Shown here: in pieces, positions 3,001-9,000 of the stretch | How the letters are laid out: each line of letters begins with the position of its first letter | Position numbering within the stretch: position 1 is the first letter of the stretch | Source: a virus | Lineage: Duplodnaviria; Heunggongvirae; Uroviricota; Caudoviricetes | Length of the DNA: 41,434 nt | IMG/VR virus record: IMGVR_UViG_2534681878_000039 | Direction: 5' to 3' (one strand) | Made by a program: the position numbers

Positions 3001-6000
3001 CAGGTTACGGCGGGTTTTCGCCACCACCGACAGGGTATCGTCATCCTCTCCATCACCATTGAGCACTTCCTTCCACAGATACCAGGCCTCTGCCGAAGGC
3101 TCCCGCAGCACCACGCTGACATTTCTCCATTCCGGCACCTTCACCGTTTTATGACGGAACCCGACAGTCTGGCCAGCGCCAGTGTTTTCAGATCTTTTGC
3201 CATAAGCCTTATCCGCCCGCACCATTAACCGTTACTGTACACGCATCAGAGGTAATGCTCTGCGGCTGTTCTGCAGAATCCGTTACCTCGCAGGTATAAG
3301 CCCCCTTATCACCTGACTGCGTATTGGCTTTACTGAAAGTGTCAGTAGTCTGTCCCTCTACCGGCTGACCATCCTTCTTCCAGGCGTGTTTATAAGGCGG
3401 CGTTCCCCCGTTGACACTGACTGACATTGTCAGCAGCGCACCGGTATTCACGGTAAGTGTCTTCTCCAGATTTTTCACAAACGCCAGCGGTACCACATAG
3501 GACACCGGTTTACCCTTCAGGCGAAGTGAAAACGTTGCAGCCACCACGCCGTTGGTACCGGATGACCAGGTGTGCTGACGCACTTCCGCCAGGAACTTAA
3601 AGCCCTTACCGGACGGAAACTGCACCTTAAACGCATACACCGTGTCATTGTCATAGGCATCACGCAGGGCGTTCTGGGCCTGATTCAGATAAAAATTACC
3701 CGACATGGAAATCTCGGACGACGCCCCCAGACCGCTGATGTTCTCCTGCTCTGTGGAGCAGAGCGTGGTCACATCAATATCCTGTTTCTGACCGGCGGTG
3801 AACTGGACTTCCTTGATGGTGCAGTCCAGGCGCAGATATTCCGCCTTCTCCATGGTTTCAGCAGTCGCCGGGGCAGATGAAATCATCACCTGCGTCAGCT
3901 GTGAACGTTCATACAAAGCAGACATTCTGCCTCCTGATAATAAAAACCCGCACGCGGCGGGTTATGGGTTCTGTTGAAAAAATTACACCGTGACCTGAAA
4001 CTCCAGGGTTGCACGGTAACAGCGGTTTTCCGGAATATAGTCCTGCATTTCACTGACGGATCCCGGGGCCAGCAGCATTATGGCTTCACGGGCGTCCTGA
4101 CGTATCTGACGCGCCTGCGTCACAGTCCCGGCATAAACGTCTATCTGCACCGACACTGAGGACTCCGCCTGCCCGCCCATCACGTCCGCCGACACCGATG
4201 AAATCAGGCTAGAAAACCACCCACGGAAGCGCCACCGACGGCCTGCCATCCAGCAGGGGGGACCACATACGGGTACACCTGCCCGCCGGCAAGATGCGCC
4301 AGATGAGGATACAAATCCGCCTCCGTCATCGTCTCAGTACCTCATCAATGGCCCGGTTCATCCGCGCAATCGCCACCTGTGCCGCCTGTTCACTGCGCAC
4401 ATCAAATGCCGGGCGCACAAACGGGTGCGGTGGCATATTCACGGTCCCCATTTCCACAAACCGCCAGTAGAAAGCATTGCGCGGGTTATCCGCCTTCATG
4501 GTGTTATCGCTGTTACCGGTGTCCGGATTAACACCCCGGATATGCACACCGGATTCCATCCCGCCATCGCGGGAGCACCGGGAAAGGACCACCACATTGC
4601 GGCGAAGTTTTCCCCTGCGTACCGGTGCCCGTGACACCACTTCTTCTTTCAGCACATTCGCACCCGCACGGGTTGCCTCACGCAGCACCCGGTTATTTTC
4701 CGCACCACTCAGAAGCTGCAAATCGCGGCTGATGTCCTCCAGCCCCGAAAAATCCAGCAGGGTTTCGATCATTTTTCCCCTCCCAGCCGACAGAGAATTT
4801 CCAGACGCCCGCCGGTCGCATCCGGCACGGGCAGCCCGACAACGTTCAGGATCCGGTCACGCCATGGACCACTCAGCACATGAAGTCGTGACGCCGCCGT
4901 GATTTCACGACCAGACTGACCGCGTACCCAGATGCGGATTTCCGCCTGCGCCATTTCCGCACCGGACTGCATCCGCTCCCGGCTGCTCCTGCCCCGGATA
5001 TCCGCATGAATTTTCCCGCATGACACCCATTCTTCCGTCATTTCTCCGGCAGCATTACGGGTTAACACCGGGTTCAGAACACTGATCATCTGTGTCAGAC
5101 GACCTGCAGATATTGCCATTCCCCCTCCTCATAACACCGTCGGACAACGCAAATCGTAAATCAGCACGGAAACAGAAAACGGCAGTTCCCCCTGCACGAG
5201 GTCTTCCCGCTCAGCAAGATCCGGATTCCGGTACAGCATCCCGGTCAGTCGCATGGCAGCCCCCTTCATCCGGGTTAATGCCTCACCCGGGATCAGCTCA
5301 CCGTCCTCACGAATCACTTTATCCCGGCTACCCTGAATGTAGGCCAGCAGCACGGCGGTAGCCTGACGAACCTTGTCCATCAGCATGTCATCATCCGCGT
5401 CATGGTCAACACGCAGATGTGCCTTGATCTCTTCCAGTGTCAGTAATGCCGTCATTTTCCGCCTCCTGCATCCCGTCCACGTTTTGCAGCCAGGGTCCAG
5501 CCTGATGAATGAGCTTCTCCGGGTTTATCACCGGTCATACTGTTGCAGTGCCACAGCGAGCCCCCCCACGTCACCGTATCGCCGGGGTGGTAGGTTTCAC
5601 CGGCTCTGAACACACCGCGGTAGAGCATCACCGGCAGGGAAAATGTTTTTTCCGTACACTGGCCACTGCTCTGCCGGATCACCACAGAGAACAACCGCTC
5701 ATCCGTCATGCTGACGTCGATATCCGCCACCCCGTCAACCAGGCATTCCCATCCCCGCATCCCGTGCGTTTTTTCATACGCCCGCCAGAGTCCACCCAGG
5801 TGTGTGGCATACGTGCCCCGGGGAAAGGATTTTTGATCGTCAATAGCGGGGAGCACTTCCAGTGCCGTGGCATCACGCCCGTCCTGCGGAGCCGGAAGGG
5901 CATTCACCGCCTCCAGAACCGCCTGCTTCAGTACTTCCGGATCGTAATCACGACCATCACGCGGAGCAGGGATATGGCTTACGGCCTCTTTCACCATCTG

Positions 6001-9000
6001 CTCAAGCATCGGACGCACATCATCGGGGGTGATACTTTTGCCGTCCGCCGGTACCGGAATATTCGCAACCGCATCATTCACCGCCTGCTTCAGTACTTCC
6101 GGATCATAATCACGACCGTCACGCGGAGCAGGGATATGGCTTACAGCCTCTTTCACCATCTGCTCAAGCATCGGACGCACATCATCGGGGGTGATACTTT
6201 TGCCGTCCGCCGGTACCGGAATATTCGCAACCGCATCATTCACCGCCTGCTTCAGTACTTCCGGATCATAATCACGACCGTCACGCGGAGCAGGGATATG
6301 GCTTACAGCCTCTTTCACCATCTGCTCAAGCATCGGACGCACATCATCGGGGGTGATACTTTTGCCGTCCGCCGGTACCGGAATATTCGCAACCGCATCA
6401 TTCACCGCCTGCTGCAGTACATCCGGATCATAATCACGACCATCACGCGGTACCGGAATGGTCCCCACAGCGTCATCCACCATCGCCTGCAGAACCGGAT
6501 GTACCTCATCCACCGTCACATGCTTCTGTAATACCGCCGACAGGGAAGCCAGTTTCTCTTCAAACGCTTGTGCCTGCGCGGCCATCTTCCCCTCAAATGT
6601 GCGCTGTAAATCCGCCAGCACCGTGGAGAATTCTTCGCCCAGTGCACGAATAATGGACAGTTCCCGTTCCGTCATTTTCTCAGTATCCCCCTGAACATCG
6701 CTTTCACTGCATCATGCTCTGTTTCACTGATTGCCTTATTACCGTCAGATGCGCCGTCAGGCAGTTGTGCTGAAACTGTTTTCCCGGCCGACGCGAACGG
6801 GTCCTCACGGGCATCACGACGGGACAGCGCCTCCAGACTGTAGTTCTGCTGCTGAAGATACAGTGCATCACCGCCGGCAAGGGGCGGCAGGTTCTCACGT
6901 TTACGGGCCTCATTGGGCGTGAGAAGCGTATTTTTCACCGATTCACCCAGTGTTTTCATGCGCCGTTCGCTGTCCATTCTCAGCAGCGTGGTGACGTCAA
7001 ACTCCGTGCTCTCGTTTTCCCCCGTTTCCAGCGCCTCATCCAGTAACAGCTCAATGGACTCAATCAGCGTCTGCAGACACTGGGAATAATACTGCTGCTC
7101 CAGCGCCTCCACGTTGTCACTGGAAGGCGGGTGGCCAACGCCAATCTTGTAGGCCGGGACACGGAACACCGAACAGACAATTTCAGCCGTCATTTTCAGT
7201 TGTTCCACCGTCTGCGCATCCACCGGTGAAAACGTCGTGGGGCTGTATTTTGCCCCGTTGCTCAGTATGGCCGTCTTCCCGGCATTTTCGCCCGTATATC
7301 CGCTGTCCCAGTTCCCCTTCAGTTTTTTCGCGTTTTCTTCCGTAATACTGCCGGGGACCTCAATCACGCCTGATGGTCGCCCGCCATTTCTGAAAAAATA
7401 CGTCGAATTTGCCTGAATATGATGCCCCTGCATGGCCGCCAGCCCGGCGGCATACACCGGCGGCAGCCCCACAAGCGGATGAAAAAAACAGTTAAACCGG
7501 TCGTGGATCACTTCCCGGGCAGGCACCGTCACCGCCTCCGTGATCCCGCAGTTCCGGTCCGGCGTGATGCGATAGAACACCTCGCCGTCATCCGCCACCA
7601 GAGGTTCAACCCGGTTCCAGTCCAGAATACGCAGTTCTTTGATCTGCCCCCGGGAGTTACGGATTTTCAGCACCACCGTATTGCCGTGACGCAGTTTGGC
7701 GTTCAGCCACAGTTCAAAAAACTGGATACGATTCTGCTGTGCATTAGGACGACGACAGAGACGGGCAATATCCCCCTGCCGTTTTTCACGGCGGATCCCC
7801 TGTGTATCGGTCTGCATCAGGCGCAGTCGCATTTTGGCGATATCCTGGGATATCAGCGAAATGCAAGAAAACACCGCGTGAAAGGACAAAACGGTTTCCG
7901 GATCGGCTTTCACACCCTGCTGCCAGGCACCGGCAAAAGGCTCAGCCACCGCCTGAAACAGGGACCGCCAGCCCACTTCTCTTACGTCACGTCCTGATTT
8001 CTGGTTTTTTCGGGTTCGCCGCAAAAGGTTCCACATTCGCCATGCTCCGCATCACGTTTCTTTTTCTGACCTGCCGGACGTCGCGCTGTGATGTACTCCG
8101 CCTTCCCCAGGCGAACCAGCACCTCCGCACACGGCTGTGCCACATCACGGATATCCCCGGCCCGGGCATCATGCGTGCCCTGCAGATACTGGATTTTTGC
8201 CATCTGTTACTGCGGGAAGCTCGCGCCTCCCGCCCTCCTCATCAGACTCAGCCACCGGACGCAGTTCCGTAGTTCACACCGGTGATCACCGCCACTGCCG
8301 CGGTACGGCGACGACGCCAGTTGATCCAGCGCTCCGCACGGATGGCCACGCTGCCGGTCTGAAACATGGAGACCAGTTCCACCGGTGACGGTGTGCTGCT
8401 GTCGCAGGTCGGTTCAGACTGCATCTCCAGTGACGCTTCACGGGACATATCCACCGCCACACCGCCGTCATCAGCCAGATAAATATCCGGTGCATTCACC
8501 AGTACCAGCTGGTCACCCACATACTGGGAGACAATTACCGGAAGCCCCTGGAAGGTCCCGCCCAGCAAGGTCATGTCCGGATATTCCTTCTGCCCCAGCG
8601 CATTTTTACGCATGGACAGCGCCAGGGCATTCGTGCTGGACATCAGCCAGACCGCACCGGTGGGCTGCAGATTTGCCGTCACAAACTGGCCAAACGCGGC
8701 CTCGGCATCCGCATCCGGGTTACCGGTTGATGCCGTGCCCTTCACATCATGGGTGATGGACGCCGGGGAGACATCCGCCACCGCCGCTTTTTTCGGGTCC
8801 ACAAAGTCTGTGTCCAGACGCGCCACCACCGCTTCCGCCAGCGCATTACGGACCAGTGCATCAGCAGCCGGACTGGAAAAACGGATCAATTCTTCCGTCA
8901 GTACCGCAATGGCCGACACTTTCGCATGACTGAAGGTGATGGATTCAAAATCAAACTTCGTCAGGGGTCTGGCCTTACCCTCACCCACCCAGCCGGCAGC

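Follow-up and report, generated by a model that had tools for sequence, protein, structure and literature searches.

A repeat-bearing gene between portal and adaptor

What does a head-module gene built largely of near-identical 162-bp repeats encode, and where in the virion might its product act? The question is raised by the window examined here, a 41,434-nucleotide stretch of DNA from a virus of the Caudoviricetes (IMG/VR record IMGVR_UViG_2534681878_000039), an E. coli prophage of the Shiga-toxin type. The gene occupies positions 5452..6675 on the minus strand, and the ORF list, its translation, and its homologues mark it as a whole gene for a 407-aa acidic protein (pI 4.8, 44 kDa), a stalk or fiber protein adjoining the portal; a plus-strand ORF at 5509-6531 is the shadow of this reading frame. 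Upstream lies a portal protein gene of the HK97 family (6672..8036, minus strand; Pfam Phage_portal, E 2.9e-80; TIGR01537, E 2.5e-108) and downstream the gene for a gp6-like head-tail adaptor, Ad1 (5129..5455, minus strand; Pfam Phage_connect_1; PHROG 40), and the portal and gp6-like adaptor profiles show that the original prediction was right to place a portal gene on one side and a connector gene on the other. The portal stop codon (TGA) and the start codon (ATG) of the stalk-protein gene share an ATGA at 6672..6675 (minus strand), which implies translational coupling of the two genes, and a second ATGA overlap, at 5452-5455, joins the stalk-protein gene to the adaptor gene. The minus-strand orientation, the overlap with the portal stop, the portal-fused relatives, and the large conserved family described below had been overlooked in that prediction.

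A coding repeat that varies in copy number

Tandem Repeats Finder reports one tandem array at 5918-6450 (period 162, 3.3 copies, 98% matches, zero indels), a segment listed without strand that we take, together with a repeat search and a difference matrix, as the copy-number-variable part of the gene, with a core of three copies at 5921-6406. In the register 5921-6082, 6083-6244, and 6245-6406, copies 2 and 3 are identical and copy 1 departs from both at 3 positions (5944, 5956, and 5983), in agreement with the three copies about 3 nt apart, encoding 54-aa repeats, that had been proposed from the sequence. Diverged copies had been proposed on both sides as well, and both are found: the unit at 6407-6568 is a diverged copy (63-64 differences in 162), and on the opposite flank only the first half-unit is recognizable (66 of 81 nt matching), where the protein reads IPAPRDGRDYDPEVLKQAVLEAVNA. 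Exact repeats in the gene reach 268 nt, whereas 200 shuffles of the sequence gave none above 13 nt, and the array is not a product of chance. Each 162-bp unit encodes 54 aa, and these fall into a 25-aa and a 29-aa sub-repeat that are related and both begin IPxPxDG; with near-identical units, a length that is a multiple of 3, and 0 to 3 differences between core copies, the array is an in-frame coding VNTR.

The proteins of close relatives are 245, 299, 353, 407, 461, 515, or 569 aa long, in steps of exactly 54 aa, and carry 1 to 7 repeat units, the length range being that of the 72 IMG/VR relatives scored. Lengths of 353, 407, 461, and 569 aa all occur in a single cluster whose flanks diverge by less than 1%, and phage records at least 99% identical across the region have spans of 1901/1902, 1740, or 1578 bp, corresponding to 0, -1, or -2 units. 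Draft assemblies from short reads, in which 486 bp of repeats can be collapsed, contribute part of this spread, but finished genomes still vary, and the complete long-read E. coli genomes include -162 and +162 bp variants. As a spacer, the stalk changes its length in whole 162-bp (54-aa) units, and with units so nearly identical the likely cause is unequal recombination or replication slippage. The original prediction had read the near-identity of the copies as recent or ongoing copy-number change and had named comparison across relatives and long-read verification as ways to check it; the 54-aa steps among near-identical phages bear this out, copy number being variable rather than invariant across relatives (245-569 aa) and in finished E. 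coli genomes alike.

Architecture of the protein

Structure prediction (AF2), which had also been suggested for a single repeat, was run on the whole protein and on the C-terminal domain, and divides the protein into three parts: an N-terminal helix of ~50 aa, a modular acidic stalk that is weakly modeled, and a confidently modeled C-terminal domain, all beta, that closes with a fold of CBM5/12 type. The N-terminal region (aa 1-55; 6511..6675, minus strand) holds a long alpha-helix at aa 3-50 (block-mean pLDDT 84-94 over aa 1-50) with partial heptad periodicity (8 of 16 a/d positions hydrophobic), and is presumed to be an oligomerization or anchoring element. It diverges faster than the C-terminal domain, with 34-53% as against 61-70% identity within the Enterobacterales when the near-identical L082 is left out.

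By repeat register and AF2, the stalk (aa 56-271; 5863..6510, minus strand; acidic, pI 4.4) alternates 25-aa units (IPxPRDGRDYDPxVLxQAVNDAVAN) with 29-aa units (IPVPADGKSITPDDVRPMLEQMVKEAVSH), each a helix plus a linker. It consists of short helices of 13-17 aa alternating with Pro-rich linkers modeled at low confidence; AF2 leaves the whole unpacked, with low pLDDT, and the profile matches of the stalk are to designed helical repeat proteins only.

The C-terminal all-beta domain (aa 272-407; 5455..5862, minus strand) bears the near-invariant residues that form the conserved signature of the family, and has a pLDDT of 95-98 in the full AF2 model and a mean of 92.9 when modeled alone. Within it, a chitin-binding-like sub-domain of CBM5/12 type at ~aa 351-400 (5476..5625, minus strand; motif YxPGDTVTWGGSLWHC) adopts the characteristic small beta fold, although its PF02839 match (E 0.0024, 18.3 bits) falls below the 26.2-bit Pfam gathering score, as do those of homologues (21.9-22.6 bits), and, unlike the CBM5/12 domains of ChiB, ChiC, and endoglucanase Z, it has no enzyme domain attached. 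The sub-domain has conserved aromatics (Y362, W375, and W393) and is a predicted glycan binder; the CBM-tipped tail fibers of phages, such as Pa193 gp47 and that of phage 7-7-1, are comparable. The beta sub-domain at ~aa 285-350 has no clear structural relative.

A conserved family with exchangeable stalks

Homology searches place the protein in a very large uncharacterized family, with 1424 homologous proteins in a word-indexed search and 5557 representatives at 50% identity. The family occupies a fixed HK97-like head module consisting of TerL, a prohead protease::major capsid fusion, the portal, the stalk-protein gene, and the Ad1 adaptor, and this synteny is kept in 37 loci from Enterobacterales, Pseudomonas, Marinobacter, Rhizobiales, and Sphingomonadales, as well as in the isolated phages FSL SP-016 and RHph_X2_26. 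Where Hc1, Neck1, and the tail tube have been exchanged, the gene nevertheless remains with TerL, the capsid protein, the portal, and Ad1. In 28 of 29 loci of other genera, the portal stop and the stalk-protein start overlap by 1-14 nt, overlap with the adaptor gene recurs in many loci besides the window, and the identity of the C-terminal domain to its orthologues tracks that of the portal, capsid protein, and TerL.

The stalk itself is replaced in parts of the family. Rhizobiales homologues have ~30-50 Gly-X-Y triplets in place of the helical repeats (Gly-X-Y stalks in L106 and L107, short C-terminal Gly-X-Y tails in L104 and L107), and others have 18-aa units of the form LPDIxxMV...LPxPEP; given these helical, collagen-like, and 18-aa types, the stalk is an exchangeable spacer. 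The window protein itself has no Gly-X-Y run, the mark of a collagen-like trimeric fiber. The best BFVD matches are collagen-repeat, CBM5/12, and tail-fiber proteins of uncultured phages, a PDB sequence search returned no solved structure placing the stalk protein in a virion, and we located no proteomic or structural report in the literature for any phage carrying the gene.

Portal fusion and database labels

A run of five G residues (G5) lies 11 nt upstream of the ATG (6687..6691, minus strand; compared across the junctions of 72 loci) and is also a possible Shine-Dalgarno element. Where relatives have G6, the stalk-protein gene is fused in frame to the portal C-terminus, and the fused proteins P0044 and P0088 read ...AMFRGDTEKMTERE... 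at the junction; the window has G5 and two ORFs. Fused genes account for 16 of the 72 IMG/VR loci and separate genes for 56, single-piece tblastn hits represent the fused form in the viable phage 2851 and in Stx2a_WGPS6, and many complete E. coli genomes have it as 1502-bp spans. Judged by these junctions, the G5-to-G6 fusion is confined among E. coli relatives to one sub-lineage that includes phage 2851. In a distant lineage a fusion has arisen independently (P0259), the in-frame portal fusion there being a protein of 1237 aa. From the distribution across loci, the split form is ancestral and by far the commonest.

The in-frame G6 fusion explains why database entries, those of RefSeq and GenBank among them, name the protein "portal protein" or "frameshifted." The PHROG 2271 profile is a concatenation, with portal at 1-451 and stalk protein at 455-859; it and PHROG 1289 are both labeled "portal protein," and PGAP calls the identical region of strain 2013C-3264 a single "phage portal protein, frameshifted." The stalk protein matches neither Phage_portal nor TIGR01537, both of which match the upstream ORF, and a single ORF continuous with the portal domain occurs only in the G6 sub-lineage, the window having two. 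The ORF is an independent conserved gene of the structural module, neither a broken portal gene nor an assembly artifact, and labels such as "portal protein" or "frameshifted portal pseudogene" hide it.

Likeness to known appendages

Several known appendages resemble the stalk protein in outline. The neck passage proteins of lactococcal siphophages, which form the collar and whiskers, have repeat or collagen-like stalks and carbohydrate-binding modules and vary between close relatives; they are accessory fibers of the head-tail junction, a site proposed for the stalk protein, but we found no sequence relationship and their gene, unlike ours, is not known to be coupled to the portal. T4 fibritin (wac), whose gene adjoins neck genes and whose repeat-unit number differs among relatives, likewise has an N-terminal anchor, a segmented helical repeat stalk, and a small C-terminal domain. 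The stalk protein lacks a Fibritin_C/foldon match, however, and has instead a ~130-aa beta domain with the CBM5/12 fold, and its stalk helices are short and split by Pro-rich linkers. The phi29 gp8.5 head fibers and SPP1 gp12 are dispensable trimeric fibers of the head module with repeat or collagen-like stalks, a resemblance shared by the Gly-X-Y-stalked homologues; no homology to either was detected, and our gene is tied to the portal rather than the capsid gene. Position directly 3' of the portal recalls SPP1 gp7, the MuF proteins, and the P22 portal barrel, and the natural fused form is a portal C-terminal extension whose first element is a long helix, but the beta/CBM tip has no counterpart in those proteins. 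Among candidate families, the SPP1 gp7/Mu F head morphogenesis family gave no Phage_Mu_F match in Pfam, PHROGs, or NCBIfam, and the known capsid decoration proteins (lambda gpD, T4 Soc/Hoc, and phage L Dec) gave no match in sequence or fold.

Possible roles at the portal vertex

The reading we favor, at a probability of roughly 45%, is that the protein is a virion fiber with a length-polymorphic spacer that belongs to the head/neck region, the portal vertex being its likeliest site. The N-terminal helix would oligomerize and dock the fiber, the stalk would set its reach, and the CBM-like tip is predicted to bind a conserved glycan or conserved partner, so that changes in copy number would tune fiber length and leave both functional ends untouched. 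By analogy with distant homologues, whose stalk is collagen-like, the oligomer is probably a trimer. Several observations weigh against a fiber of this kind. The C-terminus faces the capsid interior in all solved portals known to us, so the portal-fused form in the viable phage 2851, like the distant 1237-aa protein, would sit inside; the C-terminal domain is as conserved as portal and capsid across host orders, unlike host-specific receptor-binding tips; and AF2 does not pack the stalk.

It is possible, though we think it improbable, that the protein is instead an appendage inside the capsid, sitting on the portal crown and held there by the N-terminal helix or, in fused variants, covalently. 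Its role would be that of a stalk or core within the head, or else it would leave through the tail, whereupon its CBM-like tip would bind peptidoglycan, a chitin-like glycan, in the periplasm. The natural fusions in phage 2851, Stx2a_WGPS6, the 16 IMG/VR loci, and complete E. coli genomes, together with the independent P0259, speak for this location, as does the tight coupling, seen in every lineage, with the portal gene. Evolution of the C-terminal domain resembles that of a core head protein, as would be expected if its ligand were the same from host to host, for example peptidoglycan or a component of the head, and the gene lies in the portal-adjacent slot that encodes internal proteins of the SPP1 gp7/MuF type. 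On the other side, fusions are rare, with 0 among ~35 loci of other species, and since the ORFs overlap and a single 1-nt indel suffices, they may be tolerated accidents; moreover, a covalently fused copy cannot be ejected. Collagen-like and CBM-tipped fibers are a hallmark of external phage appendages, and we know of none inside any capsid, nor did Pfam or PHROGs show similarity to MuF/gp7 or known ejection proteins.

A broader form of this idea, rather unlikely in our estimate, is a new kind of portal appendage on the crown side in HK97-like siphophages, a thin, length-variable stalk, free or fused, with a glycan-binding tip. It would organize the packaged DNA end, or exit through the tail to bind peptidoglycan at genome delivery, and in the phages of E. 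coli it would be switched between free and portal-fused states by the change of one base in the G run, and possibly by ribosomal slippage on that run.

The original prediction had pointed, from position and with no family assigned, to a decoration or stabilization protein, and here it fares less well than on copy number and position: the role is not established, no known decoration family matches, and the architecture is that of a fiber rather than a capsid cement. Trimers on the HK97-fold shell at three-fold or hexamer sites, comparable to phi29 gp8.5 head fibers, SPP1 gp12, or a stabilizing cement, would suit a head-module gene immediately ahead of the connector genes, collagen-like homologues that imply trimers as in SPP1 gp12, and a C-terminal domain that co-evolves with the capsid protein. 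We nevertheless consider this doubtful. Beyond the missing gpD, Soc, and Dec matches, the gene follows the portal rather than the capsid gene and is portal-coupled in every lineage, a cement role is hard to square with a stalk of 1 to 7 units, and portal fusion would strip the shell of all copies in a phage that is nevertheless viable. The Hoc-like PHROG matches fall in the Ig-like region of the tail tube protein, not in the stalk-protein gene.

Programmed frameshifting is very improbable. P-site slippage at G5 before a rare AUA would move some ribosomes from the portal frame into that of the stalk gene, giving the extension to a minority of the portal subunits, much as in T7 10A/10B or lambda G/GT; in the window, tRNA-Gly slipping by -1 on G GGG G would pair again without a mismatch, the product would be exactly the protein encoded by G6 relatives, and the next codon, ATA, is rare in E. 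coli. Against this, other genera have no G run at the junction (AGAGGA, AAGGGG, and others), the Pseudomonas and Marinobacter group has another frame offset, ATT replaces ATA in some E. coli variants, and there is no X XXY YYZ heptamer. It is hardly credible that the ORF is only the 3' half of a portal pseudogene broken by a frameshift, as RefSeq/PGAP would have it, or that its repeat is an assembly artifact: the "frameshifted" call in 2013C-3264, the PHROG labels, and frameshifts relative to Stx2a_WGPS2 in other genes of the window favor this reading, but the ORFs are separate and overlapping in every other genus and in 56 of 72 E. coli relatives, the protein carries no portal signal while the portal ORF is full length alone, the window's indels relative to WGPS2 all lie outside the stalk-protein gene and its junction, and finished genomes hold the repeat at various copy numbers.

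Distribution and practical consequences

The gene is present in 1246 of 5426 complete E. coli genomes (~23%), and Stx1, Stx2a, and Stx2c converting phages are among its carriers. A portal-coupled fiber or appendage would extend the usual picture of the siphophage portal vertex by one component, and if stalk length affects adsorption or stability, the locus is a natural experiment in the tuning of appendage reach. The 162-bp VNTR is a ready marker for telling apart Stx prophages that are otherwise nearly identical, and short-read assembly is known to fail there, as many "partial" proteins on ~2-kb contigs show.

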